From the IMG/VR virus record IMGVR_UViG_3300025711_000006: DNA of 64,000 nt, one strand, 5' to 3'. Origin of the DNA: a virus. Lineage: Duplodnaviria; Heunggongvirae; Uroviricota; Caudoviricetes. Each line of letters opens with the position of its first letter. The first letter of the stretch is position 1. A model generated the notes under the pieces. That model ran no database searches and was not told the origin of the DNA. It saw only the letters and a list, made by a program, of their open reading frames with translations. Made by a program: the position numbers and the translations under genes. This document shows, piece by piece, positions 4,928-48,400 of this stretch.

Positions 4928-5641
4928 ATGACTACTGGGAACACTCCAGGCGACTTCGAGAATGCCTACAGCGCCCTGGTTAACAGCACCGGTATCAGCG
5001 TAGTATCGCGGGCGACCGCCAATGCCCTGGTAGATCGTATGCTCCAGGGCAAAGAGAGCAGCCAAACCGCCTCGATCACCAAGCGTATTGCAGAGGCTGC
5101 TACTACCGGCAACACTGCCCTAATATTCAGTCTCACTGATGAGCTGAAGAAGATCAAGGACAGCGAGCAAGCCCGCAATGAGAAGCTGAAGGAGGTAGCT
5201 AGCGGCTACACCTTCACCGAGCTGCTGAGAGCCTATCCAGAGGATTACCGAGAACTGGTGCATGAGCTGGCCACCCTGGTACTCCAGACGAATGAAGAGG
5301 GGCTGGCCAAGGGCAAGAAGCGCAATTCCACCCCAGGTAATCGACCGTTCCGCGACACTGGTCCGCTGTACATTATCAGCCACGGCGGGAAGCATATCGA
5401 AGCCCGGAAGAACGTAGGTAGTCCGAAGCTCCCTGGAGCAGAGAAGGATTTCTATGAGTTCATGGGCCTGGAAGTATCGGAAGACGGCAAGCTGGTGAAC
5501 CCATCTTCGTTCACCAACATAAAGGGCGAGGTAGTGCCAACCAACTCCAAGAAGAACATCATTAATGATCTTCTGGCTGGCCACAAGTACTGGATTGATC
5601 GTGGCTTCCGCATCAAAGAGAAGCAGGTGCAGCCCGCTTAA
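4928..5641 (+). CDS. hypothetical protein (237 aa), insulated single-gene unit
   Basis: Listed ORF start at 4796 runs through a terminator; a Met at 4928 with AAGGA 9 nt upstream is more plausible. Confidence 0.5.
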   Translation: MTTGNTPGDFENAYSALVNSTGISVVSRATANALVDRMLQGKESSQTASITKRIAEAATTGNTALIFSLTDELKKIKDSEQARNEKLKEVASGYTFTELLRAYPEDYRELVHELATLVLQTNEEGLAKGKKRNSTPGNRPFRDTGPLYIISHGGKHIEARKNVGSPKLPGAEKDFYEFMGLEVSEDGKLVNPSSFTNIKGEVVPTNSKKNIINDLLAGHKYWIDRGFRIKEKQVQPA

Positions 5642-8422: not shown

Positions 8423-9394
8423 TCACCCGCGTGGGTGAGACTGACGAACTACTTGTTTTGTGTACTGCAAATCCAAGTGGGTGTAGAGCTGAGTAGTGGC
8501 GATATTCGCGTGACCCAGAATCTCTTGCACTGCCCGGATATCCTGGGAGGATTGTAACAGATGTGTGGCACAAGAGTGGCGCATTGTGTGGGGGTGGAGA
8601 TGCTTACCCAGGGTGCGTTCGCCCATAGCCTTCACACGCTTCTGCACAGCCCGCTGAGTGAGGGCCTTACCGTGGATGCCCAGGAACACATTAGACTCTG
8701 GAGCCTTCAGTGTGCCCCGGTACTCCAGCCAGCGGGCCAGGGCCTCTAGGGCCTTGCTGCCTACCGGCACCTCACGCTCTTTGTTGCCCTTGCCGATCAC
8801 ACGGACATAGCCTTCCTTCATGTTGAGCTTGTCCATGGTCAACTCGACCAGCTCAGTGACACGCAGAGCAGCGGAATAGAAGAGTTCCAAGATAGCCTGG
8901 TCCCGTACACCCAGGAAGCCATCCACCTCGGCATCGAGCATCTGGGAGCACTCTTCAACGGCCAGCACCTGGGGCAGTGTCTTAGCCTGCTTGGGGCCTT
9001 GGAAGCCATCGGCAGGGTTGACCTGTACGAAGCCCTCAGACTTGAGGTGGCGGTAGAGGGTGCGAACAGTCGTGAGCATACGGTTGATCGACTTCGGGTT
9101 GATACCTGCCTTGAGTTCACTTCTCACCAGATCACGCAAGTGAGCAACAGTAAGGTCAGACCAACTATTGACCTTCTTCTTCGAGCAGAGGGCATAGACC
9201 TTCTTCAGGTCTTGCTGTTTAGCCGACACAGTATTGTCGGGGGCATAACGCTGGAAACGGAGATAGTCCAAGTAAGTTTCCACCTGCGCCTTCATCTGTT
9301 CCATTGCAACCCCCTGAAAATTACTTCGAAGCGGAACGCTTCTGTATATGGGAATTATAGCACTACCACCAAAATATCCAACTACTTGTTGCAC
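8423..9394 (-). CDS. int: tyrosine site-specific integrase/recombinase (XerC/XerD-like)
   Basis: Catalytic R...HxxR...Y signature (ALRVTEL; HPHTMRHSCATHLL; LGHANIATTQLYTHL). True start probably the Met at 9304 (MEQMKAQVETYLDYLRF...). Confidence 0.85.
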   Translation of the reverse strand: MQQVVGYFGGSAIIPIYRSVPLRSNFQGVAMEQMKAQVETYLDYLRFQRYAPDNTVSAKQQDLKKVYALCSKKKVNSWSDLTVAHLRDLVRSELKAGINPKSINRMLTTVRTLYRHLKSEGFVQVNPADGFQGPKQAKTLPQVLAVEECSQMLDAEVDGFLGVRDQAILELFYSAALRVTELVELTMDKLNMKEGYVRVIGKGNKEREVPVGSKALEALARWLEYRGTLKAPESNVFLGIHGKALTQRAVQKRVKAMGERTLGKHLHPHTMRHSCATHLLQSSQDIRAVQEILGHANIATTQLYTHLDLQYTKQVVRQSHPRG

Positions 9395-10473
9395 CTGCCT
9401 GGGCTGAAATATGGGGAAGTTTTTCCTTGGGAAATATTACCTGAAATTTCAAATCGGGGAATTACCAATCGGGAAGTTTACCAACTGGGGAATTTGAGAA
9501 ATATGTGGCTCGGTGCTTAACGCCTTTGCTCCTGGCTGTGCCCCCGGCCATGCACAATTCCAAAATATGGTCAAGCGCTTTCTTTGCCTGTAGTGCTACC
9601 GTTCGTCTGATAACAGCCTCTGAGTTCGCATAATGTCGATTATACGAACTGGGCTAGAGCCCCCGTCCTGCCTGGGCTAGGCCCTCATCTATAGCCATAT
9701 GATCTAGATATGGCCATATCTATAACCATGCGCAATCCCTCCCTATCCCTGGCCAGGGCCAGCAATTCACGCATTATCGAATTGAACTAACTCTATTCCC
9801 TTTATTGTTCCACGTGGAACGTGGGATAAATAATTAATTGAGTTCAAAAGAGAATGGCTTAACCCCATCGTCATAAATTACCTACGGTAGAGATTGGCTA
9901 TATGAGAGGGTTAATAGACTGTATGGCCAGCCATACGGGGATTAGGCCCTAGCTACGCTAGGTAGCATGCTAGGCTGATAGTCCTGGCCAGGGCCAGCGC
10001 TGTACACCTGGGGCAGGATAATACGCGGCAGTACACAAGGGGGCTAATAGATAACTCATTGCTACGCAATGCGGCCCTGTAATACGTGGCGTATGACGCC
10101 ACACAATAACGCTCTAAGCCACGTATCACGTGGCATTGCGGGCTTTTGAATTAGGGGGCTTTTTGCCCCTGCCCCCTCCTTATACTGGCAAGGCGTTAGC
10201 CTTGAGCGTAGTTAGCGTGTGTCGTATACGACACTATTATAATAGATATGCATTAGATAAATAACAGGCATATTCCCCAGAAAGGGGCCTAATAGAGGGC
10301 CTAAGCATAGGGCGGCTGTATCCTGGGGGGTTTATCCTGGGCAAGAAAAAAGGCCCTGGAATTGCTTCCTATGGGCCTTGTCGTGGGGTATTGCCTGGGG
10401 GTCGCTACCTGGGCTAATGCGGCCATGATATCCCCTAACTAAATGCCCCAGGCCGTAGCCTGGGGCGTTATAC
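9305..10473. promoter_or_regulatory. ORF-free palindrome-rich region next to int; candidate attP and control region
   Basis: Perfect 20-bp palindrome ATAGATATGGCCATATCTAT (~9704-9723); GTTCCACGTGGAAC; GTGTCGTATACGACAC; two copies of CCTGGCCAGGGCCAGC ~220 bp apart. Confidence 0.4.
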
Positions 10474-12335: not shown

Positions 12336-12620
12336 TTACTCCCCTTTCAAGCCGTAGCTTGCCCGCACCTGGGCACGGATTTTAGCGGTTCGCTCTTCAT
12401 AAGCAATGCGGGCAGCTTCACGACGGGCCGGGGCTTCAGCCTCCCATTTTGCCTGCCGTTCGGCAATTTCACCCATTAGGCGGGTATATTCAGGCGTGGG
12501 AGTGGTATCGGCCAGGGCGATGAGTACCATACAGCCGACAAAAACGACCAGGGCGACAACGGCTAGCGGGGCCATTGGGTTAGCGACGAATTCGGCATAA
12601 GTCATTGTCTGTTGCTCCAT
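12336..12620 (-). CDS. small membrane protein (94 aa)
   Basis: One hydrophobic TM helix; first gene after promoter cassette 1. Confidence 0.5.
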   Translation of the reverse strand: MEQQTMTYAEFVANPMAPLAVVALVVFVGCMVLIALADTTPTPEYTRLMGEIAERQAKWEAEAPARREAARIAYEERTAKIRAQVRASYGLKGE

Positions 12621-12668
12621 TGCCTTACTAGGCTTACCGGGGAGGCCCTTTGCCCCGCCAATGGAAGC

Positions 12669-12697
12669 ATTCTAGCGCTATATGGTATCTATAGCAA
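12669..12697 (-). promoter_or_regulatory. repeated promoter cassette copy 1 (TTGCTA-N17-TAGAAT)
   Basis: Minus-strand TTGCTAtagataccatatagcgcTAGAAT, then conserved UTR ...CCTAGTAAGGCA. Confidence 0.55.
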
Positions 12698-12744
12698 CAG
12701 GGGCAGTAAAAATAAATCGCCCAGGCGTACCCTGGGCGCCTGGG

Positions 12745-13440: not shown

Positions 13441-13507
13441 TCTATTCCCCTTTGCCTTACTAGGCGTTTTCAGGGGGCTGGCCCTATTGCCTTGCCCCTT
13501 GCTAAGC

Positions 13508-13536
13508 ATCTTATCGCTATAGGAACGCTATAGCAA
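13508..13536 (-). promoter_or_regulatory. repeated promoter cassette copy 2 (TTGCTA-N17-TAAGAT)
   Basis: TTGCTAtagcgttcctatagcgaTAAGAT, conserved UTR with CCTAGTAAGGCAAAGG. Confidence 0.55.
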
Positions 13537-13770
13537 CAGGCTAGGCAAATTTTTTTTGGGGTAGGCCAGGGCCTGGGCCTGCCGTTCGGCTCCCAGGGAT
13601 GTGAGGTATTCCAGGGCCTTTACCATGCTCCCACCATAGCGGCTTAGCAGGTCGCGCAACTGGCTATCGGTGAAGGGGCCCGCCTGGGCTTCCTGGGCGT
13701 ACTGCCGCATAGCGGCGACCATTGCCAGGGTAACGCCCTGGGTTAGAATTTCCAGCTTACTAGGTGCCAT
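13528..13770 (-). CDS. hypothetical protein (~80 aa)
   Basis: Probable start MAPSKLEIL with AAGGCAAGGA RBS; the longer listed ORF is GC-rich leader. Confidence 0.45.
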   Translation of the reverse strand: MAPSKLEILTQGVTLAMVAAMRQYAQEAQAGPFTDSQLRDLLSRYGGSMVKALEYLTSLGAERQAQALAYPKKNLPSLLL

Positions 13771-15071: not shown

Positions 15072-15134
15072 TTTTTAGCTTCCTTTGCCTTACTAGGCTT
15101 ATCGGGGAGGCCCTTTGCCGTCCCCGTGCTAAGC

Positions 15135-15163
15135 ATTCTATCGCTATAGATCCTCTATAGCAA
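15135..15163 (-). promoter_or_regulatory. repeated promoter cassette copy 3 (TTGCTA-N17-TAGAAT)
   Basis: TTGCTAtagaggatctatagcgaTAGAAT; best match to sigma70 consensus. Confidence 0.6.
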
Positions 15164-15171
15164 CATACTTT

Positions 15172-17738: not shown

Positions 17739-17818
17739 TGCTCCATACTCCGTAACTTTCGGGACTTACTGACTTACTAAAACATGGTACTTCTACGGGC
17801 TTAGCCCCAATTAAGGGG

Positions 17819-18022
17819 CTAGGCGGCATTCTGTTGCATTCGCAACTTGAGTTCGTAAATTCTTTGCTCAAGGGCTAGGGCTACGCCTTCAGCAACGTCC
17901 GCCCAGGTCTGGCAAATTGTCGCACCCTCCCTTACAAAGCGTTCGTTCTTTGCCTGCCTTTCGCGTGCCGCTTTGGCGCGGGTTTCCAGGCGCTGCAAAT
18001 ACTCTTGATCCGTTAGAGCCAT
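17819..18022 (-). CDS. hypothetical coiled-coil protein (67 aa)
   Basis: ORF preceded by CCTAGTAAGGCA UTR element. Confidence 0.45.
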   Translation of the reverse strand: MALTDQEYLQRLETRAKAARERQAKNERFVREGATICQTWADVAEGVALALEQRIYELKLRMQQNAA

Positions 18023-23514: not shown

Positions 23515-23589
23515 GGTTGTAGCTCCGTTGGTGCCATACGTGGCGTGGGGTACTTCTACGGGCTTAGCCCCAATTAAGGGGCTAAAGGT

Positions 23590-25281: not shown

Positions 25282-25665
25282 ATGAGTAAGATTGCACAGG
25301 TAAAGAACATCGAGGCACAGCTCAAAGCCCTTCAGGCACAGCTTGCAGCTCTCCAGGCAGACCCAGAGGTAAAGGCCGACCAAGAGTTCGAAGCAGAGCT
25401 TCGCCAGTTGCTCGCTAAGCACAGTCGCTCCCTGGTCGATGTGAATCGAGTGCTCGACCCCAACTATAAGCCTGCTAAAGCTCCCAAGGTGAATGGAGCT
25501 GGCCCAGGCGTAGCTACCAATCCGAAGCCTAAGCTCCGTACATGGCTCAACCCGCACACTCAGGAAAAGGTCGAGTCTACCCACGGCAATAACAAGGTTC
25601 TGAATGCTTGGCGGCAGCAGTGGGGTAAAGAAGCTGTAGCGAGCTGGAAGTTACCAGACGAGTGA
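25282..25665 (+). CDS. MvaT/MvaU-like H-NS family nucleoid-associated protein (xenogeneic silencer)
   Basis: 127 aa; N-terminal coiled coil (LKALQAQLAALQ) and C-terminal KLRTWLNPHTQEKVESTHGNNKVLNAWRQQWG matching the MvaT DNA-binding domain as I recall it. Confidence 0.75.
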   Translation: MSKIAQVKNIEAQLKALQAQLAALQADPEVKADQEFEAELRQLLAKHSRSLVDVNRVLDPNYKPAKAPKVNGAGPGVATNPKPKLRTWLNPHTQEKVESTHGNNKVLNAWRQQWGKEAVASWKLPDE

Positions 25666-26025: not shown

Positions 26026-26331
26026 TTACACCTCTTCAGGCGTGACTCTCAACTGGGTTTCCATCTGTCCTGGGTTGAACTCGCAGTCAAGCGTGTAGCC
26101 CGCCCGGACCAGCATCGTCATCAGCGTGTCAATGTTGAAGTCTTCTAGCTGGCCCTGCATGAGCCGGTTAACGTCTGCCGCGTCCACGTGCATCTCATTT
26201 GCCGCCAGTTGGTCTGACCACTCCCTTACCCGGATGTGGGTAATGAGCTGCATCCCGAGCTGCGACCTTACCTGCTTCAGGTTGTAGTCAACCGGATCAT
26301 TCGAGAACAGCTTGAATAGGTTCTGCCCCAT
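26026..26331 (-). CDS. XRE-like HTH DNA-binding protein (candidate repressor or antitoxin-type regulator)
   Basis: 101 aa; C-terminal WSDQLAANEMHVDAADVNRLMQGQ...TLMTMLVRAGYTL fits the HTH_XRE pattern; CCCCCTGTGG box at its RBS. Confidence 0.5.
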   Translation of the reverse strand: MGQNLFKLFSNDPVDYNLKQVRSQLGMQLITHIRVREWSDQLAANEMHVDAADVNRLMQGQLEDFNIDTLMTMLVRAGYTLDCEFNPGQMETQLRVTPEEV

Positions 26332-26368
26332 GGTATCCCCCTGTGGTAGTTCTCACGGACACAAGAAA

Positions 26369-26384
26369 GCCGCCCGAAGGCGGC
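26369..26384. terminator. bidirectional hairpin terminator
   Basis: GCCGCCCGAAGGCGGC flanked by A/T runs on both strands. Confidence 0.5.
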
Positions 26385-26498
26385 TCGCTGTCTTTCTTCG
26401 CTGCCCCTGGATCTTCGGTGGTGCTCTTAACCTGCCGACGATGTGAGCCCAGGCGCCTACGGGGGGCATCCTACCTCCCCACCCCCTGTGATGCAAAT

Positions 26499-26533
26499 CC
26501 TACAGGCAATAAAAAAGCCGCCCATGTGGAGGC
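26499..26533. terminator. bidirectional terminator AGGCAATAAAAAAGCCGCCC...GGCGGCTTT
   Basis: Hairpin with A-run before and T-run after; the same 20-mer leader recurs at 36898. Confidence 0.55.
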
Positions 26534-26822
26534 GGCTTTAGTGTCGGACGCCCCGGTCAACAAAGGAGGCGGAGGAAGCAGCGGCTGGAATCACTTCAAG
26601 GCTCAGGGAGATGGGCACAGAGGTGAAAGCGTCCGACAGGCGGCACTTTACATAGTTCGCCACTACCCTGCAACCCCTTCCCTCGAAAATGCCCAGGAAG
26701 GCCCCTGGGAGCCCCGTGGTGCAACGTACCGCTTTAGGGCCTGGTAGTGCCATTGGTGCCGTATGACGCTCTAGGATGCGAAGGCAGGGGCTTAGCTCCC
26801 GTGAACCGCTCAGAATCGACGT

Positions 26823-27790
26823 AGCGTCACTACTTGTATATACGTCTACGCATTTACGCATTTGCGTATCTACTCATCTACTCACTTACGCATCTACTCA
26901 AATGCGCATCTACGCACCTACTCATGTACGCATTTACTCACGTGAGTAGATACGCACCTACGCATTCACTCATCTACGCATTTGCGTGCTTACGCACGTA
27001 CTCACTCACGTGCGTACCTGGGCACGCAATCACTTGGCCACTCGATTACCCAATCACTCACCCACGTGGGCACTCACGTGATTGCCTACGCAATCACGCA
27101 ATTGGTCACGCACCTAAGCACGTGCTTGCTTGGGTGCTTGCTTGGGTAAGTAGGTGCGTGGGTAGGTAATTGGTTAAGCACGTGAGTGAGTACGTGCTTG
27201 CGTAAGCACGTGGTTGAGTAAGTGGCCAAGCAATTGGGTAGGTGCTTACCTGCTTGAGTGAGTGCTTGATTGCGTGGGCACGCACCTACGTGCTTGGGTG
27301 AGTAAGCAATTGCGCAATTAATTGAGTGAGTGAGTTGACACGCACCCACGTGCTTGAGTAAGCTCTTACGCAATGACGTAATTGATTAAGCAATCACCCA
27401 CGCAATTGAGTACCTGAGTAGGTACGTGATTGAGCCAGTACGTGATTGCGTGCTTGAGTAGGTAGGTAGGTAATGAGGTGCGTAACCACCCAATCACTCA
27501 CCCACTTGAGCACGTAGGTACGCAATTGGTTGCGTGGGTGGGTAAGCAAGCACTTCCCTACGTGTGCAGGTACTCACGTAAGTGGATGGCCAAGTAAGTG
27601 GTGAACTACGCAAGTGAGCGCTTACGTGGGGAAGTGCGTGGTTACTCAATTGGACAAGTAAGCCCGTAGGTAGGTAAGCACCTACTTACTCAAGTGAATG
27701 CGTGGCCACTCAAGTGGATGGTTGCGTAAGCACTTAATGACGTACATACTTACGCACTTGGGCCATTACTGGCTTCTATGCGTAACCAGG
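26823..27790. repeat. array 1 of 8-bp periodic repeats (candidate partition centromere or iterons)
   Basis: Over 100 consecutive 8-mers: block A (26838-27010) NNTAC(G/T)CA(T/C); block B (27010-27790) the complementary TG(A/C)GTA(A/G)G; starts TTGTATATACGTCTACGCA. Confidence 0.8.
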
Positions 27791-27900
27791 GGAATACCCG
27801 ATTGCTCACCATGCTGAGCAGTTGCCCACACAGCAGCCGCGTAAGCGGTAAACAGGCACGGAAATGCTCATACACGATGAGCATATAAAGAGGCGGTACT

Positions 27901-28638
27901 ATGAAAATCATCGCAGTAGCAAACGGTAAGGGTGGCGTAGGCAAGACCACCACCACTGCACACGTTGGGGTTAACCTTTTCCAGCGCGGTTACTTCTCCG
28001 CGTTCTTGGACACTGACCCCCTGCTCTCCCTTACTGACTGGTGGGATCTGCGCGAATCGGAAGACCCACAACTGATTTCCTGTGAGCTGAGTAAGCTGGA
28101 TGCAGCTATTGCTCAGCTTGAAGCAGCGGGCGTTGAGTACCTGCTGATTGATACTCCCGGCTTTATGAGCGGTCAGGTCAATAATCTGCTCAAGCGAGCG
28201 GACCTGATTCTGATGATGTCGAAAGCAAGTCCCTTGGACCTGCGAGGCACCATCCGCTCCCTGGACTTCATTGAGGCACAGGGCGTTACACAGCCTATGG
28301 TGTTCGTACTGAATGAAGTACGGAAGGGGACCAAGATCGAGAATGAGTCGATCCTCTCCCTTTCTCAGTTCGGCAAGCTGGCACCCGTTGTTCACTATAA
28401 AGATGCGTTCGTGAGCAGCATGATTAACGGTCATGTGCTGGAAGAAATCGCCAAGAACGACAACCCAGGTATTGCCCAGGTTGACGCACTGACTGAGTAC
28501 GTCCTGGCCCAGCTTGGCGTTAAGGATCCGAAACCTGTTGTCCGCGATGAGCCCGCACCCCAGGCAGGCGCCGAGGTGATTGACCTTGCGTCCAAGCGGG
28601 GTAAGAAGGCAAAAACCTCGGCTAAGCGTAAGGCGTAA
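27901..28638 (+). CDS. parA: ParA/Soj-family partition ATPase (small type Ib ParA)
   Basis: Deviant Walker A KGGVGKTT at N-terminus; 245 aa without N-terminal HTH; GAGG RBS. Confidence 0.85.
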   Translation: MKIIAVANGKGGVGKTTTTAHVGVNLFQRGYFSAFLDTDPLLSLTDWWDLRESEDPQLISCELSKLDAAIAQLEAAGVEYLLIDTPGFMSGQVNNLLKRADLILMMSKASPLDLRGTIRSLDFIEAQGVTQPMVFVLNEVRKGTKIENESILSLSQFGKLAPVVHYKDAFVSSMINGHVLEEIAKNDNPGIAQVDALTEYVLAQLGVKDPKPVVRDEPAPQAGAEVIDLASKRGKKAKTSAKRKA

Positions 28639-28662
28639 CCGACCGACCACCCCCAGGTTGTA

Positions 28663-28905
28663 TATACATCTACGCAAATGCGTAAATGAGTACTTACGCA
28701 CGTGCGTACTTGAGTAGGTAGGTGGTCACTCACGTGGCCACTTGACCACGCACCTAAGTGCGTGGTTAACTGCGTGCTTGCGTAAGCAGTTACCTGTGTG
28801 GGTGAGTAGGTAATTAAGTGGTGGAGTGGGTACACACGCACCTACGCACTTGGCCAAGCACTTGGTTAAGCAAGTAGTTGACTAGCCACGCAAGCGGACA
28901 AGCAG
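28663..28905. repeat. array 2 of the same 8-bp repeat family between parA and the RHH gene
   Basis: Starts TTGTATATACATCTACGCAAATGCG; GTGAGTA/TACGCAC/TAAGCAC units. Confidence 0.7.
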
Positions 28906-28915
28906 GTACACTAAG

Positions 28916-29443
28916 ATGGTAGCGAAAGCACAAAGAGGCTCACTGGCGGCAGCGGGCCTAGTAAGACATAAACCCACAAGCCCATCCTCGGTAGCAGAAG
29001 CTCCGATGGACCCGGATGCAGATGCAGCGAAAGTTGCCCAGGTGTCTCAGCCAGAGCCCGAGGCGACGAAGGAAGCTGTTCAACCAGAACCGGAGCTTGC
29101 CACCAAGCCTGAAGTCAAACCGGATCCTCCGAAGCCGGAACCGCAACAAGTTGCCCAGGAACCAACTTTCGAGCCTGAGCCGGAACCAGAGTTAGTTCGT
29201 AAGGTCGAAATACAGCCCGCACAGCCGGATGCAGCTTTGAACAATCCTTCAGAACTTCAAGTAGTCCGCATTGCGGCCCCGGTACATGCCCGCAAAAAGA
29301 AGCCCGACCAGATTCAACTGAGTGTCAAGCTTAAAGGCTCAATTCTGGAGCGATTCGAAAAGGCGCGGTATGAGACTGACCTTACAGGCCAAGAGATTGG
29401 GGTAGAGGCCATTGAAATCTGGTTGGCACACAACGGGTTTTAG
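28916..29443 (+). CDS. ribbon-helix-helix centromere-binding protein (ParG-like), long Pro/Glu-rich N-terminal tail
   Basis: C-terminal QLSVKLKGSILERFEKARYETDLTGQEIGVEAIEIWL is a canonical RHH fold pattern; located directly after parA. Confidence 0.6.
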   Translation: MVAKAQRGSLAAAGLVRHKPTSPSSVAEAPMDPDADAAKVAQVSQPEPEATKEAVQPEPELATKPEVKPDPPKPEPQQVAQEPTFEPEPEPELVRKVEIQPAQPDAALNNPSELQVVRIAAPVHARKKKPDQIQLSVKLKGSILERFEKARYETDLTGQEIGVEAIEIWLAHNGF

Positions 29444-29462
29444 TGGGATCTGATGTATAGCA

Positions 29463-29535
29463 AGGGGCCATATGGCCCCTTTAGTTGCTGCTGCACAATA
29501 AGCGGACAAAAGAAAAGGGCCTTTCGGCCCTTTCG
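29463..29535. terminator. convergent terminator pair
   Basis: GGGGCCATATGGCCCC plus TTT for the plus strand; AGGGCCTTTCGGCCCT followed by T-run on the minus strand. Confidence 0.6.
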
Positions 29536-29541
29536 TCGTTA

Positions 29542-30036
29542 TCATTCTGCCACTGTTTCTGCCTCTTCCTTCGGCTTCGGTGCGCGTCCTTTCTGAGTCT
29601 TCACCTGCTTTATCTGGTAGTACTTCTTAAAACGGGGCTGGATTTCTTCAAACTTGCCCTTGGCGACAAGCGTGGGGTTAACCATGAACTCTCCGTGACC
29701 GATGCGCCTCAGTACGTCGAGCCCCAGGAGGGCGTTCAAGTAGTTGTTGAAAGTGTTCACCTGAATACCCATCGCTTCACTCATCCTTACCCGCATGCCT
29801 GGGGTGAGGTAGAGCATATTATCGTATTCCATTTTGTGACCGAGATGGTGAACCATGGTCGCATGGTGGGACTTCAACCCCAACTCGGTCATCGCCTCCG
29901 TGTACACCTTCACGAAGGCGGGCTCCTGGGCGAACCTGTATGTGGTTGTCGTCTCTTCGCTCAGAACCTCCCCCGTCTGCTTGTCGATGGTGGTTTTTTC
30001 TGTACGATGTTTGATCGTTTTCGCATTGTTGGCCAT
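29542..30036 (-). CDS. winged-helix DNA-binding protein, RepL-like candidate replication initiator
   Basis: 164 aa; AGGGAG RBS; HTH-like MSEAMGIQVNTFNNYLNALLGLDVLRRIG; family assignment is from memory only. Confidence 0.35.
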   Translation of the reverse strand: MANNAKTIKHRTEKTTIDKQTGEVLSEETTTTYRFAQEPAFVKVYTEAMTELGLKSHHATMVHHLGHKMEYDNMLYLTPGMRVRMSEAMGIQVNTFNNYLNALLGLDVLRRIGHGEFMVNPTLVAKGKFEEIQPRFKKYYQIKQVKTQKGRAPKPKEEAETVAE

Positions 30037-30039
30037 AGC

Positions 30040-30765
30040 TTCGTGCTCCCTCTGGTGGTGGTCAAAATCAGCTAAATCAAGGTACTAGAGGATGCATCTA
30101 GAAATGCTCCCAGGTGCTCAGATGGCGACCCCGATTTTCCTAATGAAATAGCTTACGCTACCTAACCTATATCGGAAAGGCACGTAACCTATTTTATTAG
30201 GGAAAATCGGAAATCGGTAATAAAACCGGGAGGTCGCAAAAGCTTCTTTTCTTTTAGGGCCAGTTTCGGAGGGTTGACACGGTGGGGGATGCGACACTGC
30301 CGCGCTTCGCTTGGCGGCTACGTCCCGTCGCATCGTCCACCCTGGCGCTTCGCTGGGGTGGCCAATCCGCCGTGCCGCAGCTCTCTACACCAGAGGCCAG
30401 CGCCGTGTCAAGAAAAAAGGATTTTACGATTGGGTATTGCGTCGGGTTTCGAACGGGGCTAATCTTTGGCCCAGAAACGACAAAGCCCCTCACGAAGAGG
30501 GGCCTTGAAGTGGCCAAGCGGTGTTACCAGCACCCTAGGCCCGGAGTCGAGGGGAATTCTCAGCTTTAGCAGGCACGGGAATCTCGACTCAGTAGACCCT
30601 ATTATATTAGGGATAGGTCCGTCCTGTCTACTGATTCGCACCCCTACGACACAACTTTTTGCAGGATAAATCCGTCAACCAAACGGGTATTGTCCGCTGT
30701 GTAAGGGGTAATAAACCTTGAAGAATTTCTTCAATGGAATCAGTAACTTAGCGCCTCTGGGCCAA
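30040..30765. other. ORF-poor structured non-coding region (candidate origin or ncRNA)
   Basis: ~115-nt imperfect hairpin 30124-30238 (GCGACCCCGATTTTCCTAAT ... ATTAGGGAAAATCGG ... GGGAGGTCGC); GC-rich 30270-30560 with only short overlapping ORFs in several frames. Confidence 0.4.
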
Positions 30766-39458: not shown

Positions 39459-42400
39459 TTACCAGATTCCCATACGCACTCTTAGTACCCCATCAACAAC
39501 AACTTGAATGCCGTCTTGGTTGAATACAGAGTAAGTATTTGCCCGCGTTGGGTGCCGAGTAATAACGTTCCCGACGTTGAAGTCCTGTGTCATAACAGGG
39601 CCACCCCAGTTGGTCTGGTATGCTGAGTAGATGCCAGAGCCGATGATGGCGTTAGTTACCGTTGCCTTATTGATAAAGGCGTCAGCAATAAACGTTTGAC
39701 CGTTCTGTACAACAAACGGCGAAGTCGCTGTTCCGTTTACCGAGTTGAGAATTGCAAACCGGTCAGCAACAAAGAGCACTTGGCTCTGCATGCCGCTCGG
39801 CGTGTTCTCAATCCCGATACCCATACCGGCACCGTAGTACTGACCGTTTGAGTTCACCGCCAACTTCACACTATAAAGAGCGTTAAGCTTTCCATTCGTA
39901 GAAGACTGGGTAGACGAAAGTGTCGAGATACTAGACGTATGGCTTCCAACCGTACTGGTTAGGCTTGAAATCGACGATGCCTGCGCGGTAATAGTTGAAC
40001 CTTGCTGCGTTACTGTTGTAGCTAACGAAGTCAGGGCGCGGGCACTAGGCCCTGCAACAAACGGTGAAGGTGTAGTACCATCCACAACTTGTTTTTCCAC
40101 CATGATGGAATCGACGGTCAAGTTTGCACTTGCTGCACCATTGATATTCGGGTAGATCAAGAGTGAAACTTTTGCTCTTGTGGGGACTGTGATAATCCCT
40201 GATTGCCGAGTACGTGTAGTGGTGAAGTTGACTGCAATTTGCCGAGATGTAGTCATGTCGTACAAGTTGAACAGCGCCTGACCGGCAGTAGTGCCTCGCA
40301 TGTACATGGAAACAATGTAGTTTCCAGGCTCTAACGTCATGTTCGTTGCTGCTGTGTTGGTGGCGGACGCAAGGTAGAGGGCTGCATAAGTGTTACTGCT
40401 GCCTGTCGCTACCAAGTTAATCCCGTAACCTGAATCCGAGCCCGCAACGGCCACCCCAGTCGCTGTCAAGCCGCTTGGAACCACAGGCGGCAAGGTCGTG
40501 GAAGTCAACCAGCTATACTCATCACTCAGCAGGTTAGTACCAGTGCCTCCAATCCCGTTGAGGGAGTTAGTCAAACTGGTGATGCTACTGGATGCACTTG
40601 TTAGAGCACCTTCCGTAGAAGTTACGCGGTTGGTTAGTGCAGTCAATGCGGTAGCTTGGGCCGATACGGCACTTGCACTTGGGCCTGCAACAAACGGGCT
40701 AGCCGTTGTTCCTGGGCCTGTCTGCTTCTCAACCATCACGGAGTCAACAGTTACTTCCTGGCCGCTCACGCCGCTCATGTTGTAGTAGAACAACACAGCC
40801 ATTGTGCTTGGAGCCCCAATGGTTACGGTGTGGCTGTAACGTGTCCGAGTGGAAGTTACAGTCTGTGCTACTGAATACGCACTTGTCGTAGTTGAATACA
40901 GACGCATACGCACAGATGCAGTGGTTGGGGTTGAAGCGTAGAACGACACAATGTATGTGCCCGCTTCAATTGGCATGTTGAACCCGGCTACGTTGTTGGT
41001 AGGGCAGAGCATCAAGTAGCAGCCCGTCGAGGTGCTAGTTGAAGTCATCTTGTATCCGAAGCCTGAAGCAGACCCAGACACAGCTACACCAACAGTAGTA
41101 GTTGCACTACCGTTCGTTGTCGGCAACGCTACGGAAGTTAGCCAGCTATACTCATCTCTGAGCAAGTTGTTACCCGAGCCAGAGATTCCGCCAACTTGGT
41201 TTTGCAACGTCGTTACCGAAGAGCCCTGGGAAGTGATATTCCCTTCAGCAGTGGTTACACGTGACGTTAGAGCAGCGAGAGCAGAGCTATCGGCCTTGTT
41301 CGCCACTGTGTTGGTCAAGCTGGTGATCGAGGTGCCTTGACTTGTAATTGTCCCTTCCGCCGATGTTACTCGGGTATCCAGGGCAGACAGAGCCGTAGCT
41401 TGTGCTGAGTCCTGGGCGGCACGTTTACGAATCACAGGTGACGATACAAACACATCACTAGCGTTGCCCGCTGATACACGGAAGCACATCGCAATGCGGA
41501 TAACACCGGCTGGAATAACACGTGTTCCAGTCAGCTTCGTCCAAGTCGCAGCGGTGCTAGTCAGGCGCACACCGTCACCGCTTGCAGCCACCCAATCATG
41601 AGTGATCGAAGTACCGGCAGCGTCGTACATCTGAATCCAGATACCTACTTGGCGAGAGGCGCTTGTGTAAGCGTACATCTCGAAGTCGTATGTATCACCA
41701 GCCGCAACAACCATGTTATGAGTAACACCGGTTTCTGGAGCCTTGACGTTTGGAGTTACGATGAACCCCATGTACAAGTTGCTTGCACCTGTTGCTAGAG
41801 CCCACTTCAGTACCCGAGCGCTTGGGGATCCATCTGGTACACCGGCATCTGATCGAGCAACAACGGTAACAGCAGATTGGTTAGTGCCGTGACCAGCCGA
41901 GAACGTCGGGTCATTGACCAAGTTGTCTGTAGCAACCGAGCCAACACTTGATTGCAGGCTGGTAATCGAAGTGCCCTGGCTAGTGATCGTACCTTCTGCA
42001 TTTGTAACGCGGTTGGTTAGAGAACTTAGCGCCGTAGACTGTGCTTCGACTTGGCGAGCACTATTACCAACACTGAATGTGCTTGGCTCTGTACCAGTAC
42101 CAATCTGTTCTTCCAGCATGAAGCCGTCGTAGATGTGTGAGCTAGTTCCCGCAGTAGCGTTCTGGAAGACAAGGATCTGTGCATCACCCGCCACTGCTGC
42201 TGGAGTTGTAATCACCGCACTTACGCGGGTCCAGGTTGTGGTCACAGGCACTGTAGCTACTGCTACCTCTACAAATGATCCTGCTGCGTTTTTATAACGA
42301 AGGCGCAACTGTGAAGTCCTTGCCGCATCACCTTGAACCCAGAACGACATAATGTAGTTCTTAGTCGGCTTCAATTTCAGTGGGCAATCAGTTGAGGATG

Positions 42401-45400
42401 CTGTGAGATAGAAGTAATTGGACTGCGATACCGTGCTCACAACACGAAGAGCGTAGTTACCATACGCAGAGGTATTCGCCTCAGTTGTAATGGTGACGTT
42501 AGCCTGCTTGTGTTGCGTAGGTGCTGTGGCACCAAACACGGAGAACTCAGCGGGCATCAAGTTAACAGCAGCATTGATCCCATTGAAGGAGTTAGTCAGG
42601 CTGGTAATGCTCTGGCCCTGGCTTGTTACTGTTGTACCTTGTTGGGTCACAGTCGAAGTCAGAGAACTTAGAGCGCTTGATGTTGCGGCGATATCCGAGG
42701 CCAAGCCTTGACCGTTATCGTGCCAACCGCTTGCTTTAGAACCCGCCTCAACTTGAGGTCTTGCGAACTCAATTGTTCCGTTTGTGGCAGTAGCAGTCGT
42801 ACCGTATACGCGGTAGTAGATGTTCGCTTGAGTAGCATCAGCCGGGGCTGTTGCAGTCAAGGTGATACGTGATCCATCCACAGTGATCGGGGTCAAACTG
42901 CTCGACGGTGTTGAAAGCAGTGTTCCGGCAGCGTTTAGGAACTGGAAGTACAGTCGCATGTTCATCAGGCCAGCTTCAGCCATTCTACGAACATAGATGG
43001 ATGAAGTGAAGGTCTGCCCACCAGCAACCTTAGCCCGTGTTGTCGAAGTAGTTAGCAGCGACATATAAGGGGTAGAGCTAGTGATTCCTGTAATCGCTAC
43101 GCGCTGTGCGCGTTCGCCTGAGTTCATCCAAGATGTAACTAGGCTAGGATTCAGTCCCGCTGTGCCTTCTAGCTGCCAGCCTTCCGGCCAGTTCGCATTA
43201 GTTGCACTTGTACGGGTGAACGTCGGGTTGTACAGCAAGTTCTCAGCGCCTGCATCACCCAAAGCGTTATCCAGTTGCGTGATGTTGCTTGACGCAGTGG
43301 TGATATTGCCTTCTGCTGCTGTTACGCGGTTAGTCAGGGCGGTAAGGGCGGAAGCATCAGCCTTATTGCTCACAGTGTTAGTCAGGGATGTGATCGAGTT
43401 ACCTTGAGAGGTGATCGTGTTACCCTGGTTAGTTACTGTGGTAGTTAGGGCTGTAGTTGCATCAGCGTTGGCTTGATCCGCTGCTGTACGGCGGCGAATC
43501 ATAATGTTGCACCACAGTGATCGACCTACGTTGTCGGTCGTCTCATGGCGGATAACAATCCGGGCAGATACCGAACCTGCTGGAGCAGTGATGCTACCAG
43601 TGTAAGTCTGGAACCCGTTAGTGCCAGCCACACACTGCGCGCCAGTGTAGTAACCAATGTTCGCTGAGTTCTTATCAAAGAACTGCATCTGGAGGCGTGC
43701 CCACTGACCAGCAGTGAAGTAGTTGTTCCAGATATCCGCAGAGGTGTCGAATACTTCCCCTGGTGCTGTGATGATGTTGCGAGTAGTACCGCAGAAGCTA
43801 TTAGCGTAGAACTGGATAGCCTTACCGTATGCAGAGTGGGCTGTAATGCCTACTACGGTTGGATCGTTAGTCCAAGGACCGATATCACCATCCTCGAAAG
43901 TACCCTTCAGTACCAGATTATCTGGCGACTGTGAGAGCGACGATTGAAGCGCTGTGAGTGAGTTCCCTTGGCTAGTGATCGTGTTGCCCTGGGTGGTCAC
44001 TGTTGAGGTCAGACCGCTAATAGCGCTGCCCTGGCTAGTGATATTCCCCTCAGCCGTAGAAATACGGTTGGTTAGGCTTGTGATCGAGCTGCTTTGAGAA
44101 GTGATCGTGCCTTCAGCGGCTGTAACTCTGTTGGTCAGTGCCTGGAGTGCGGTCCCTTGTGCAGCGGCTTGCGTGTAGCTGCTTCCGCCGTTGTACGTGG
44201 ATGGCTCTGAGGATGCACCAACTTGCTTTTCAACCATGAACCGGTCGAAGTAAACTTCAGTACCCGATACACCTGAGTTGTTCGGCATGAGTGCGAAAGC
44301 CATACGGTTTCCGCTGAATGTCGAAGCGTTGGTTAGATCCATTACCGCGCTGTATCGAACCCAACTTGTGGTTAGGGTGATTAGAGCGGATACGGCGTTC
44401 ACCGCAACATCAGAACTATTCAATGCACGGAGGTATGCACGAATCTGGCGACCAGCAACGTTCGTCTTGGCGTAGAACGAGATAATGTATTTAGCATTAT
44501 CATAAGACATATTCCAGCCATCAGCAGTAGCGTTTGAAACATGCAAGTAGCAGGCAAGGGAGTTAGTAGCCAAAGAGCTAGTAAACTTCAGTGCGTAGCC
44601 ATTTTGGCATGCAGCATCAACCACCGTCGTGAAAGTCAGTCCTGCGTTGATTGCACCAATAGGCGGAACATTGGCCGAGAACACAGAGTACTCGGAAGGC
44701 ATCAAGTTAGTACCGTTACCACCAATCGCATTAACGCTGTTGGTTAGGTTGGTAATGCTCTGGCCTTGCGAAGTTGTTGTGCCTTCAACAGCAGTTACCC
44801 GGCTAGTCAGTGCTGTTACAGCGGAGCTGTCTGCCTTGTTCGCTACAGTGTTGGTCAAGCTAGTTAGTGCCGAACCTTGCGAAGTGATTGTGTTACCTTG
44901 CTGTGTAACTGTTGCAGTTAGAGCGGTTGTTGCTGCTGCGTTAGCAGCCTCACCAGCACTCTGAATAGCAACGCGCAAGTTGCCCAGCCACATCTTGAAG
45001 CCAACCGGGGAAACTGCTTCAGTCGCAAGATACACGCGGAATCCAGCAGATCCAGCAGGGAGTGTGTATTGCGTCGAGAGGGCTTGCCAGCCACCTGTTG
45101 CAGCAACGTAGCCCAGTACACGAACGTTACCTACGCTGATTGTGTTGCCTGCCGAATCGACCGGGGTAATGCAGAGCTTACCGGCGTTCGTAACAGCGTT
45201 TTCACAGAACATATGGCATGAGATATTAATTACATCTCCAGCGTTCGCCCTGGTGAAGATTTGATAGTCGTTCCCGATCTTGTTTGTGGAGGTAAGTACA
45301 ACACCGCCCCAGTTATTATCGGTTGCCTTCTTCAATCTCCACAGCAGTCTTCCAGCAGGTGGGTTAGCCGGTACACCACTGTCTGTGGCGTTGGCATAGT

Positions 45401-48400
45401 CCATCTGGTACAGGCTACCGTTCTCGGTCTTGAGAATGCCCGCTGGATCCCAGTTCGGGTTAAGCAGAACATCATCTTGCGATGTGTTACCCAGACTTGT
45501 TTGCAAGTTGGTGATGCTTTGCCCTTGGGCAGTAGCTACACCCTCTGCATTCGATACCCGGCTCGTAAGTGCCGAAGTAGCGGAAGAGTTTGCATCAATC
45601 TGTACTTGCTCGGTTACGTCTTCTACTGTGTAGTAGTCAAGAACCGCTACACCGCCTTTGCTGTTGTAGTTCGCAATCACCATTGGCGAGAACCATGCGG
45701 TTCCTGCTTTCAGGCGTTTAGGGTCAGCCGCAGTACCTGCACCTGCACCACCGTTCTCAGTTGGTGATGTGTGTCCCTTAATGTGTACGCTTACTTCTAC
45801 CCATTGACCAGTAGGGTTAATGACGTTGTTCATCAGCAAGTAGTGCGACGAACTTACGGAGTTTGCTCCCGAGTTATTAATACGGGTCACACCGTCTTCT
45901 GCGAAGCAGTTCAAGCCGAGGTATGTGGATGGCGAGGCCAAACTTACTGAAACCTGCTTCACGCGGGCAGATAGTTTGTACACGCGGGTAGGGTCAAAGC
46001 GGATGCGGCGAGTTGATTCACCCCACCAGTGACCGTTACCAGCTCCACCGCTAAGCACCATTACACCGTCATTGGTGCTGCCTGCCTCAGTACCGTAAAC
46101 GGCTGTAGCAGTCGAAGTGCTTGCATTGGATACCCACTTATCGGTTGCCATAGCGCCGAAGACGCTTTGGTAAACCTTCGTTGGCGAATTGTCCAGCGAA
46201 CCGGTTAGCTTGTTATCAAGCTGGGTAATGCTTTCTCCTTGGGATGTAACATTACCTTCGGCGGTAGTTACTCGGCTGGTCAGGGCCTGGAGGGCAGAGC
46301 TATCGGCTTTGTTTGATACTGTGTTGGTCAGGCTAGTAATCGCTTGACCTTGTGAAGTGATATTACCTTCAGCCGAAGTAACGCGGTTAGTCAAAGACTG
46401 GATTGCATTGCCTTGTGCTGCAACTTGGCCTGCGCTATTACCAATCACGAATGTGGAAGGCGTTGTCCCTGTAGCAACTTGCTCTTCGACCATGATCTTA
46501 TCGACCCACACCGGAACGCCATAGGCGCCTGATCCAGACTTCGGATCAATGCAGAGAATCATCTTCTCGGCAGGGGAAGCAGTCATATCAATGATCGTGG
46601 TATAACGTGCCCAGGAGGTCGTTACGGTCATGTTGCTTGGGTAGTGGAAGACTACGGTGCCATCGGTCTGGATAGCGCGGAAACCAGCACGTAGTTGGTG
46701 TCCATCTGTTCCAGCTCGGACATACATCGAGACGATGTATTTCTTCTGCTTCATCTGCATGTTTGCAGAACCAATCACTGTGGAAGGTGAGAGGTAAACA
46801 GTGGCTGTCCCTGAGTCCTTCTGGAAGCGCAGAGCGTAGCCAGCGAATGTTCCTGCATCTGCCTCTACAACAGCAGTAATGCCACCACCTACAACCATGC
46901 TTGGGGCTGTGTTGCTGAATGTGCAGTACTCGGCAGGGAGCAAGTTGCTACCTGTTCCGCTAATCGCACCAACTGTTGTGCTCAAGTTCGTGATCGCAGT
47001 ACCTTGAGAGGTAATTGATCCGCCCTGGGCAGTAACGGTATTGGTCAGGCCACTGATTGCAGTTCCCTGCGATGTTAGTGTGCCTTCCGCTGTTGTTACA
47101 CGGTTGGTTAGATTGGTTAGCGACGTTCCCTGAGAAGTGATCGTCCCTTCGGCAGTAGTAACACGTGCAGTCAAAGCGCTTGTAGCACTTGCTGCGTTCG
47201 TAACCGAGATAGCGCTTGTACCAGCAACGAATGGTGAAGCAGTGTTTGTTGCACCGATACGCTTCTCAACCATCACGCTATCAATGATAACTTCCATTCC
47301 CGCAACGTTAGTGCGGTTCGGGTAGATGGTTACGGCAGTGCGAGCACTATCCGTTACAGTAACCGGTAGGGTTACACGTGTACGGGCAGTGGTGAAGTTG
47401 CCGAGGCTTGTGTAACGGTGTGTGCCGTCATACAGAGAAACGATAACCTGCCCAGCATTGTTACCCTTGATGTAGAACGAAACTAGGTAAGTTCCAGGCT
47501 CAATGCGGATGTTGTATCCGGCAGCGTTATTGGTAGGCGAGAGCATCAGGAACTGGCTGCTAGCCGTAGAGTTACCGATCTGGTAGCCAAACTTCGAATC
47601 AGCCTCAGCTACTGCAACAGCCGCCGTAGTCAGGGCCGTAGTTTTTGCAACAGCGGGCAGGGTGGTCGAGGTCAACCAGCTATAAGTATCCTCCAGCAGG
47701 TTAGTGCCAGACCCTGCGATACCGTCTACAGTCGCCTGGACGTTGGTGATCGACTGACCTTGCGAGGTCAGGGTATTGCCTTGCTGAGTTACTGTGCTGC
47801 TCAAATTGCTCAGGGCATTTGAGGTTCCAGTGATATTCGTCTCAGCGTTTGTGATGCGTGTTGTGAGCCCTGTGAGCTGCGATGTGTGCGAAGTAAGGGT
47901 GTTGCCCTGGTTCGTGATCGTCGTGGTGTTTGTGCTCACCTGGGCGGCTGTTGCACCGGCTTCTTGCAGGATGGTTCCTACGTCTTTCCAGTACGTCACG
48001 TTAGGTGGAGTCTTGTTCACCGGAACGGCAATCAGAGCCTGATACAGGCGTTGACCTTTGCGGACAATATCGCCAACTGCGTAGGTCTTGGTTGCGTCGT
48101 ACTCAGCAGCCTTAACAGCTGCATCGAGGTCGGTACGCAGGCCAGCAACTGTGGTATCAACTGCATTCGCACGGTTGGTCAAAGTAGTAACACTTTGGTT
48201 CAACGAGGTAACGGAGTTGTTTACGCTTGTTTGAAGAGCTGTTACATCACCTTTAACACCAGTGATCTGGCTATTTAGGTCGTTCTTCGTATTGGTGATC
48301 TGAGTATTGAGCGAGCCTACTTGATTGGTTAGGTCGTTCTTTACATTGGTGATCTGGGTATTGATCGCTGAAACATCAGACTTAACCTTGGTATCCAGGG

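Follow-up and report, generated by a model that had tools for sequence, protein, structure and literature searches.

The window analysed here is a 64-kb stretch of DNA from the tailed-phage record IMGVR_UViG_3300025711_000006. It corresponds, in reversed orientation, to positions ~9,966-73,965 of a 107,073-bp metagenome contig, of which 81 kb was read. At 27901-30036 of the window lie three genes that the first-pass annotation had described as a plasmid-type maintenance module, coding for the partition ATPase ParA, a ribbon-helix-helix (RHH) partner of 175 amino acids (aa) and a RepL-like replication protein of 164 aa. All three open reading frames (ORFs) are present at the positions given. 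In addition, parA is flanked by two long arrays of phased tetramers, which the annotation had not mentioned and which were noticed through the periodic translations on either side of the gene. The principal elements of the locus are the following.

26834-27770: array 1, candidate main centromere/operator; 937 bp, about 117 octamers or 232 tetramers in a single unbroken 4-nt register
27790-27900, plus strand: parA leader, with three conserved hairpins, ending just 5' of the Shine-Dalgarno sequence
27901-28638, plus strand: parA, 245 aa, a small type Ib (ParF-like) deviant-Walker-A ATPase
28658-28906: array 2, candidate second centromere and operator of the partner gene; 249 bp, 62 tetramers, between parA and the partner gene
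28916-29443, plus strand: gene of the candidate centromere-binding protein (the partner), 175 aa, studied by alignment and AlphaFold models
29542-30036, minus strand: convergent gene of a RepL-family initiator, 164 aa, Pfam PF05732

The N-terminus of ParA is MKIIAVANGKGGVGKTT, with the deviant Walker A motif starting at residue 8 and its KGGVGKT segment at residue 10. Because this motif sits at the extreme N-terminus, the protein lacks an N-terminal helix-turn-helix (HTH) domain, as had been annotated. The identification is borne out by matches to the Pfam families CbiA, AAA_31 and VirC1 and to the PHROG 'ParA-like partition protein', and the best solved relative is ParF of plasmid TP228 (4dzz), residues 1-199 of which align with residues 1-199 of ParA (E 6.8e-13). 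The protein ends in a basic C-terminal extension of about 45 aa. It scores 105.6 bits against NCBIfam ParA_partition, below the equivalog cut-off of 180 bits, and is therefore a divergent member of that family. Homologues occur in 303 plasmid records. The partition cassette with its arrays is very probably a type Ib system of plasmid origin, an assignment that is well supported by the evidence described below.

The partner protein

The 175-aa protein has no match in Pfam, PHROG or NCBIfam. In an alignment of ten homologues the C-terminal pattern QLS-K-...G..L.RF..A....G..I..EA..IWL.HNG is invariant. The N-terminal peptide is also conserved, with Arg7 invariant, and the middle of the protein is a variable, Pro/Glu-rich disordered linker of about 110 aa. 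The AlphaFold model has residues 1-120 disordered, followed by a strand and two helices. This C-terminal domain begins with the strand QLSVKL, in which the motif Q-L-S-x-K is conserved. When the isolated domain was modelled from an alignment of 22 sequences, the predicted local distance difference test (pLDDT) values were 91-97. The top geometric matches of this model in Foldseek are RHH structures, namely AmrZ (TM score 0.70, root-mean-square deviation 1.7 Å), the RHH domain of HicB, and Reg576, all with non-significant E-values. The family has 26 representatives among 1.84 billion sequences.

The partner had been annotated as an RHH, ParG-like protein. The geometry of the model agrees with an RHH-like fold, but by sequence the protein lies outside the ParG family. 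The isolated domain gives no match to Pfam ParG (PF09274) even at E<=10, whereas the authentic ParG of Aeromonas, used as a positive control, passes at 30.5 bits. An hhalign comparison with that Aeromonas ParG returned a probability of 0.35%, and only one of 24 family members reaches E 0.06 against ParG. With the Pfam, PDB-profile and hhalign comparisons all negative, ParG membership by sequence was rejected. Since these tests fail and no Pfam family fits, the partner is treated as a candidate centromere-binding protein of a new family with a predicted RHH-like domain. A ParF-like ATPase with a small, putatively DNA-binding partner of this fold agrees with the type Ib pair that had been proposed.

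The tails of TP228 ParG carry an arginine-finger-like motif that stimulates ParF (PMC7308502). By analogy with that motif, the conserved N-terminal peptide containing Arg7 may act as the stimulator of ParA.

A second protein of 175 aa is encoded away from the par locus, at 3704-4231 on the plus strand. It has an Arc-like (RHH) domain near its N-terminus and weak PHROG matches to families labelled 'partition protein ATPase'.

The tetramer arrays

A window-wide scan found a phase-locked tetramer signal at only two places in the 64 kb, both flanking parA. The motif TTGTATATAC, which contains a palindrome, stands at the start of each array. In array 1, 221 of the 232 tetramers begin with a pyrimidine-purine (YR) step, which is TG, CA or TA in 218 of them. 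The consensus YRMK (M, A or C; K, G or T) fits 65% of the tetramers, compared with 7.5% on average and at most 12% in the background. The period of 4 is dominant and the 8-bp superperiod is weak. Read one base later, the boxes become RMKY, with ACGC (20), ACGT (19), ACTC (16) and GAGT (14). YRMK is its own reverse complement at a shift of 2 nt and would thus suit two-fold-symmetric dimers. The left ~290 bp of the array is C-rich and made of TAC[G/T]CA-NN units, in which a box occupies every second tetramer and is followed by a spacer. Beyond this point the strand bias flips, the units are mostly TG[A/C]GTA-NN and the boxes are denser. The GC content is 50%.

Related loci from independent assemblies (L011, L012, L013, L015/L016 and L017) retain the same layout, which runs from an MvaT-like gene through an HTH_37 gene (in most of them), array 1, parA and array 2 to the partner gene. 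The position and grammar of the arrays are conserved in six related loci, as is the opening palindrome, but their sequence is not. Array 1 is conserved in L011, L012, L013 and L016, and array 2 in these and in L017. The span of array 1 is about 0.9-1.0 kb in the window, L011, L012 and L013 and about 1.3 kb in L016; in L017 the array is short and degenerate. Every related array holds one register. The 29 gap runs of a four-way alignment all have lengths divisible by 4; aligners favour in-phase gaps on periodic DNA, but the single register of each genome was established independently. Differences at the Y and R positions are transitions in 77-93% of cases, compared with 23-34% at the other two positions. 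Neutral, microsatellite-like expansion was rejected because the units are non-identical, the register is held over ~1 kb in every relative and the changes in the YR step are nearly all transitions.

A conserved TTGACA island lies inside array 1, and in the parA leader 9 of the 22 predicted pairs keep pairing through two-sided changes in five relatives. The islands of the array and the covarying hairpins of the leader suggest that par transcription starts within the array, which is consistent with autoregulation.

Two islands of array 1, at 27335-27350 and 27568-27625 (TTGACACGCACCCAC... and ACTCACGTAAGTGGATGGCCAAGTAAGTGGTGAAC...), stand out from the neighbouring units by their much stronger conservation across relatives. 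They may represent the par promoter or a site for another protein.

Relation to plasmid partition systems

The partition system of TP228, a multiresistance plasmid of E. coli, offers a close comparison. Its ParG binds 20 ACTC boxes placed 8 bp apart, with one dimer per box. The boxes are degenerate and of mixed orientation, 12 of them forming parH and 8 forming O_F; inversion of a box is tolerated, and the arrays act as both centromere and operator (PMC3130281). The phage cassette resembles this system in its small ParF-like ATPase and in a partner predicted to combine a flexible N-terminal tail, carrying a conserved arginine, with a C-terminal RHH-type domain. Array 1 includes ACTC/GAGT, the ParG box, and probably doubles as an operator in the manner of the TP228 arrays. 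There are also clear differences. The tail of the phage partner has about 120 aa, compared with about 30 aa in ParG, and the partner is outside the ParG family by sequence. In TP228, AT-rich 4-bp spacers stand between the 20 boxes (~160 bp), whereas the phage has 232 and 62 continuous tetramers of 50% GC in which the spacers follow YRMK too. Finally, the second phage array splits parA from the partner gene, and the replicon is a phage.

In a plasmid collection, the only DNA matches to array 1 are octamer arrays. One of these, (CATGAGTA)x28, lies directly upstream of the annotated parA-parG genes of Aeromonas veronii plasmid p71506-2. The closest ParA homologue on a Pseudomonas plasmid, with 36.7% identity, is that of the 132-kb plasmid of P. 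oryzihabitans FDAARGOS_657 (NZ_CP044072.1). Here four short phased clusters, including (CACCTAAG)x4 and (ACCCAAGC)x6, precede parA, and a short array follows it. Next comes an unannotated ORF of 98 aa (L023 3621-3917), missing from the gene table used, whose product belongs to the same new RHH family as the phage partner (hhalign probability 96.9%, E 1.6e-10). It is probably the centromere-binding protein of the plasmid, judged by family and position. The plasmid thus shares with the phage a homologous ParA, the same RHH family and phased 8-bp arrays before and after parA; the cassette therefore exists on a plasmid of a cultured Pseudomonas. The plasmid partner has a much shorter tail than that of the phage, and the arrays of both the P. 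oryzihabitans and Aeromonas plasmids are short, partly perfect tandem repeats, unlike those of the phage. Compared with ~160 bp for the boxes of TP228, 224 bp for the Aeromonas array and no more than 215 bp for any P. oryzihabitans cluster, the phage arrays are about 4-8 times longer.

Other elements with ParA homologues were considered as array parallels, namely plasmids from an uncultured bacterium (PLAsvaD) and from Deefgea and the Acinetobacter phage vB_IME_Ab2712, and were rejected, having no phased arrays. Upstream of parA these two plasmids carry only a 20-bp palindrome, ACGCAAATACGTATTTGCGT (L024 ~2850-2875 and L025 ~2375-2400). A related sequence, ACGCAAATGCGT, occurs at the start of array 2, within 28672-28685 of the window.

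At the sequence level the two phased arrays flanking parA have the arrayed-box form of a type Ib centromere, and they are most likely the centromere of the phage. This reading follows from the parH/O_F arrays of TP228, whose ParF is the closest solved relative of ParA, and from the plasmid matches of array 1, among them the Aeromonas array upstream of parA-parG. It is strengthened by the homologous cassette with arrays in P. oryzihabitans, and by the arrays tracking the par genes rather than repL, as they are present in L012 and L013.

The genes to the left of array 1 bear on a different role for the arrays.

25282-25665, plus strand: silencer of the MvaT/MvaU family (NCBIfam silencer_MvaTU 101.8 bits, cut-off 75)
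26026-26331, minus strand: HTH_37 protein
26367-26386 and 26514-26539: terminator hairpins separating these genes from array 1

The synteny of these neighbours is kept in L011, L012, L013, L014 and L017. With the MvaT-like and HTH_37 genes always adjoining array 1, the arrays might instead be a nucleation or silencing platform for these proteins, or else origin iterons or a field of operators with a role in transcription only. DNA with a flexible YR step every 4 bp might favour proteins of the H-NS/MvaT type, and the TTGACA island together with the structured parA leader suggests a transcription start inside the array. On the other side, array 2 is separated from the MvaT-like gene, being placed between parA and the gene of the partner; loci in which repL has been replaced or is absent still have the arrays; the arrays have 50% GC and are not AT-rich; and there are plasmids with an array, ParA and an RHH partner but no MvaT gene annotated in the 6.5-7-kb flanks examined. 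There is thus only a slight chance that the arrays are something other than centromeres. A role as operator does not exclude one as centromere, because both coexist in TP228.

The replication gene and the adjoining non-coding region

The 164-aa protein matches the Pfam RepL profile (PF05732) with 45.4 bits, well above the cut-off of 20.3 bits, over profile positions 4-154 of 164, in agreement with the RepL-like initiator that had been suggested. The corresponding proteins of L011 (21.8 bits) and L014 (28.1 bits) also pass. RepL-family genes occur in 146 plasmid records, including the annotated RepL of plasmids of 2.8-4.6 kb, and in phage-like elements such as Sodalis phiSG1. The RepL-family protein of the Pseudomonas plasmid pBYT5-6 (2,774 bp, two genes) also has 164 aa and aligns with residues 13-154 of the phage protein at 28.9% identity. 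Identity to the plasmid and phiSG1 RepL proteins is only ~28-33%, and there is no origin or iteron sequence in common. A tblastn search gave no RepL match in P1 at E<=1e-3.

The slot occupied by the initiator gene varies. RepL is found in the window, L011, L014 and L017, an HTH_36 protein takes its place in L012, and L013 has no ORF there. Close relatives can thus do without the phage gene or have another in its place. Precomputed Pfam matches and Pfam/PHROG scans of selected ORFs revealed no further replication gene in the window; this agrees with the annotation, which had noted the absence of genes of the lambda O/P type.

The intergenic elements around repL are as follows.

29462-29534: likely terminator-like hairpins, a GC-rich pair between the convergent partner gene and repL
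30037-30235, minus strand: repL upstream region with short direct and inverted repeats (D13, I18)
30250-30440, minus strand: GC-rich structured block with two GCGAAGC motifs and nested inverted repeats (D9, I2)
30472-30630, minus strand: candidate small RNA (sRNA) of ~120 nt, with promoter, three hairpins and intrinsic terminator

The hairpin pair consists of a perfect 10+10 palindrome at 29462-29481 and a terminator-like site on the minus strand at 29534-29513. The region immediately upstream of repL, 30037-30235, aligns only among loci that have repL, namely the window, L011 and L014. Comparison with the iteron region of pBYT5-6, itself a RepL plasmid, showed no homology, and the location of an origin through pBYT5-6 was rejected, as no non-coding sequence is shared. 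From its position and repeats, 30037-30235 is a candidate promoter/operator of repL or a candidate origin. The block at 30250-30440, by comparison, is conserved with or without repL.

The sRNA unit has the promoter TAGACA-N18-TATAAT at 30630-30601, which agrees with the consensus at 11 of 12 positions and has the arms of an inverted repeat on either side, and a strong intrinsic terminator at 30507-30481, ~95 nt downstream of the promoter. Seven of its 45 predicted pairs change on both sides. It is conserved in L011-L014, including relatives without repL. Rfam gave no match at gathering thresholds over the whole window, and a local scan produced only chance-level hits (E>=1). The region as a whole (30037-30765) had been proposed as a structured non-coding origin next to the initiator gene. 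It is indeed structured and conserved, but it holds an sRNA candidate that is conserved even in relatives without repL, and it is therefore not demonstrably an origin.

The sRNA unit also occurs in an intergenic gap of a plasmid of P. fluorescens DR133 (CP048608.1; L018 ~4960-5200). This circular plasmid of 81 kb was rejected as a cultured relative of the phage, since the sRNA-like element and one small ORF are all that it has in common with the phage, and a phased array is absent. It carries tail genes, ParA, a 'stability/partitioning determinant' and a tyrosine recombinase (L019/L020), and is itself a candidate Pseudomonas phage-plasmid, unrelated to the phage of the window.

The recombinase and the dif-like site

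Some 18 kb to the left of the par locus are a recombinase gene and a possible site for its product.

8423-9304, minus strand: tyrosine recombinase resembling XerC and XerD, called with 293 aa; with a GTG start the ORF reaches 9394
9622-9649: dif-like site, AGTTCGCATAA-TGTCGA-TTATACGAACT, 28 bp in an 11-6-11 arrangement, ~320 bp upstream of the recombinase gene

The recombinase aligns end to end with both NCBIfam XerC (298.3 bits, cut-off 335.15) and XerD (263.1 bits, cut-off 329.6). Both equivalog cut-offs are missed, and by this measure the protein is Xer-like and not an orthologue of either. It also matches Pfam Phage_int_SAM_1 and Phage_integrase and a PHROG labelled 'integrase'. The arms of the adjacent site are inverted repeats at 10 of 11 positions around a 6-bp centre. 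The match to a dif-like core is non-significant alone, as 16 of 100 shuffled sequences gave a match; its weight derives from its position beside the recombinase gene and from the symmetry of the arms. As both arms are the same half-site, a homomeric, single recombinase is suggested. In having a full-span Xer-like protein and a 28-bp site with 11-bp inverted arms adjoining its gene, the phage resembles the single-recombinase Xer/dif systems and Cre/loxP. It differs from XerC/XerD in the scores below the equivalog cut-offs and in the two arms being the same half-site. In P1, the site-specific recombinase Cre acts on lox to resolve dimers (PMC7969092).

The combination of an XerC-like protein with an adjacent dif-like site favours multimer resolution over integration, and from sequence the pair fits a plasmid-style resolution system at least as well as an integration system. 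The annotated 'XerC/D-type integrase' is accordingly Xer-like by end-to-end alignment, but the integration option attached to it is not favoured. An integrating temperate phage would use the recombinase and its site to enter the host chromosome at dif or a similar sequence, in the manner of integrative mobile elements exploiting Xer (IMEX-like), and the par and rep genes would then serve transiently or be passengers. The PHROG class of the recombinase is in keeping with this, as is the left arm of the 28-bp site, which resembles the XerC-side arm of bacterial dif; some elements, moreover, alternate between integrated and plasmid states (PMC7969092). Integration is nevertheless very unlikely. 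The two arms being the same half-site suits a single-recombinase resolution site, and there is no tRNA gene or att-like junction next to the recombinase in the window. Furthermore, no chromosomal flank was seen around the module in the five contigs of 100-108 kb that were read, and none of 185,579 representative genomes contains the partner family.

Between the recombinase gene and the dif-like site, at 9405-9500, are about five iteron-like direct repeats, GGGGAA(T/G)TT, spaced 15-17 bp apart. They are possibly accessory sequences.

The phage genome and its host

The 81 kb read of the source contig is phage-like throughout. To the right of the window are genes for capsid, protease, portal and terminase and then a tRNA cluster; to the left are ribonucleotide reductase (RNR) and MazG genes of nucleotide metabolism and many small ORFs. 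The virion genes comprise terminase, portal, protease, an E-type capsid protein, tape measure, a gpJ-like protein, tail proteins like L, K and M, and lysozyme, so that the lambda-like virion module of the annotation is borne out. Genes for virion, packaging and lysis are thus found with those for ParA and RepL on one replicon, which is the gene set of a phage-plasmid.

Chromosomal flanks or att sites, which would have marked an integrated element, were not encountered. No chromosomal DNA or chromosome junction was seen over the 81 kb. Homologues of the module proteins are found on eight contigs of 100.4, 103.2, 103.5, 105.4, 106.8, 106.9, 107.1 and 107.7 kb, and RCUQ01000085.1 (107.2 kb) is a further relative. 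In a common orientation the module was computed to lie at 44.5, 40.4, 35.9, 84.3 and 97.0 kb of five contigs, and none of the five that were read has a chromosomal flank around it. Since the size is constant (100-108 kb), the breakpoints differ and there are no chromosomal flanks, the map is circular or circularly permuted.

The region 26-32 kb of the window has no DNA similarity to deposited phages, and IMG/VR contains no useful close relatives of ParA or RepL; the element as a whole lacks DNA or close protein relatives among deposited phages, plasmids and IMG/VR. The nearest cultured phages are phiPMW and vB_PpS_SYP, with 37% capsid identity and genomes of 103-107 kb. The contigs represent a previously undescribed group of siphoviruses of ~105 kb, seen so far in metagenomes only. 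The host is probably Pseudomonas-like, as indicated by the MvaT/MvaU gene, the capsid kinship with phiPMW and SYP, the cassette in P. oryzihabitans and the copy of the sRNA in DR133.

The tRNA cluster is located upstream of the terminase region (L007 57-3000) and codes for Thr, Ile, Ala, Asn, Cys, Lys, Ser, Leu, Ser and Pro tRNAs. It fills the gene-free gap near the start of the contig in which a third array had been suspected. A second MvaT_DBD gene is called at L007 2444-2827; a duplication of the MvaT/HTH pair at the DNA level was suspected and was not found.

Probable maintenance as a plasmid prophage

The best explanation of the locus, probable though unproven, is that it is a plasmid-type maintenance unit which keeps a siphovirus of ~105 kb as a plasmid prophage. 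Dimers of the partner would use their RHH-like C-termini to read the RMKY boxes (ACGC, ACGT, ACTC, GAGT and others) that recur every 4-8 bp. They would cover both arrays cooperatively, the 0.94-kb one that precedes parA and the 0.25-kb one that precedes their own gene, forming a very large partition complex that would also repress the par genes. The disordered tails would present the N-terminal peptide with Arg7 to nucleoid-bound ParA-ATP dimers, and this peptide would stimulate ATP hydrolysis, driving the separation of sister genomes. The RepL-family protein would supply plasmid-type initiation of replication, and the XerC-like recombinase, acting on the adjacent dif-like site, would resolve multimers. 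Together these functions would enable the phage to be maintained as a plasmid prophage of low copy number; an extrachromosomal lifestyle of this kind, that of a phage-plasmid, is plausible and likewise unproven.

P1 and SSU5 use HTH ParB-type partners. The phage described here is like them a tailed phage of ~100 kb with a partition system, a plasmid-type initiator, a recombinase and a circular map (PMC7969092). Unlike them, it has a type Ib system with an RHH-like partner and a probable Pseudomonas host, and it is known from sequence alone.

Several points weigh against a plasmid prophage. All of the functional steps, that is, binding of the partner to the arrays, its interaction with ParA, RepL-driven replication, resolution and lysogeny, are inferred. 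The fold searches with the partner lack statistical significance, and its comparisons with ParG are negative, as described above. The partner family occurs in none of 185,579 species-representative isolate genomes, and for this reason no lysogen is known. As the initiator slot is variable, RepL may not be an essential plasmid replicon, and further replication genes may lie in the remaining ~24 kb of the contig. A circular map would also result from a virion genome that is terminally redundant or permuted.

Further points of this kind speak for a phage that is virulent or pseudolysogenic, in which the par system would position replicating genomes or serve a transient carrier state and RepL would be a lytic initiator. 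Clusters of tRNA genes are more typical of virulent phages, and the contig has one of at least ten genes, in addition to its RNR and MazG-type genes. No CI/S24-type repressor was recognised among the window and contig ORFs scanned. In P1, RepL serves lytic replication. The nearest cultured relatives, phiPMW and SYP, are large Pseudomonas siphoviruses without the module and without this ParA and RepL, and the phiPMW paper treats phage tRNA genes in the context of non-temperate phages (PMC5587285). Partition homologues have also been found in phages described as strictly virulent (PMC7969092). However, the cassette is conserved and its arrays are strongly constrained in all relatives examined, and a real plasmid carries a homologous cassette. 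A recombinase of the Xer type with its site answers a need of circular replicons that are inherited vertically rather than one of a lytic burst, and the genome contains two MvaT-like silencer genes and several HTH/Arc regulators. A virulent or pseudolysogenic phage is thus considered unlikely, and persistence as a plasmid prophage remains the preferred explanation.

A bolder version of the partition complex can be imagined, in which at least ~100 RHH dimers coat the array into a continuous filament. The 'brush' of tails would then form a specialised, perhaps condensate-like partition body, and the array might also serve for attack or defence, either by titrating centromere-binding proteins made by resident Pseudomonas plasmids with the homologous cassette or by excluding host silencers. 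This is a rather improbable extension; if true, it would represent a new centromere organisation for type Ib systems and a strategy of phage-plasmid incompatibility.

What is new here is the partner family, the exceptionally long and strictly phased centromere-like array and the metagenomic phage group; the class of mechanism is known. If the module works as inferred, the phages form a previously undescribed Pseudomonas-type group of phage-plasmids of ~105 kb, and type Ib partition with an RHH partner joins the repertoire of large tailed phages. The array is in effect a natural experiment in centromere design, in which the 4-bp register and the YR step are kept over ~0.9-1.3 kb while the sequence drifts. 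It is suited to asking how RHH proteins read degenerate boxes and build higher-order complexes, and how the span of an array relates to the size of its cargo. A putative function is also assigned to an unannotated protein family on a Pseudomonas plasmid.

Further features of the window

An intergenic element of ~85 nt is present in three copies, ~82% identical, at 12616-12699, 13449-13538 and 15081-15165, each with the palindrome GCTATAG-N6/7-CTATAGC. The copies are likely repeated promoter/operator units of a leftward early operon. Also in the early region are two identical 36-bp copies, 5.8 kb apart at 17786-17821 and 23549-23584, which contain a GC-rich hairpin (GGGCTTAGCCCC...GGGGCT). On the minus strand a single ORF at 39459-51020 codes for a gpJ-like tail tip or fibre protein of 3,853 aa (FNIII-A_GpJ, Phage-tail_3), and this ORF includes several internal repeats with 68-76% DNA identity.

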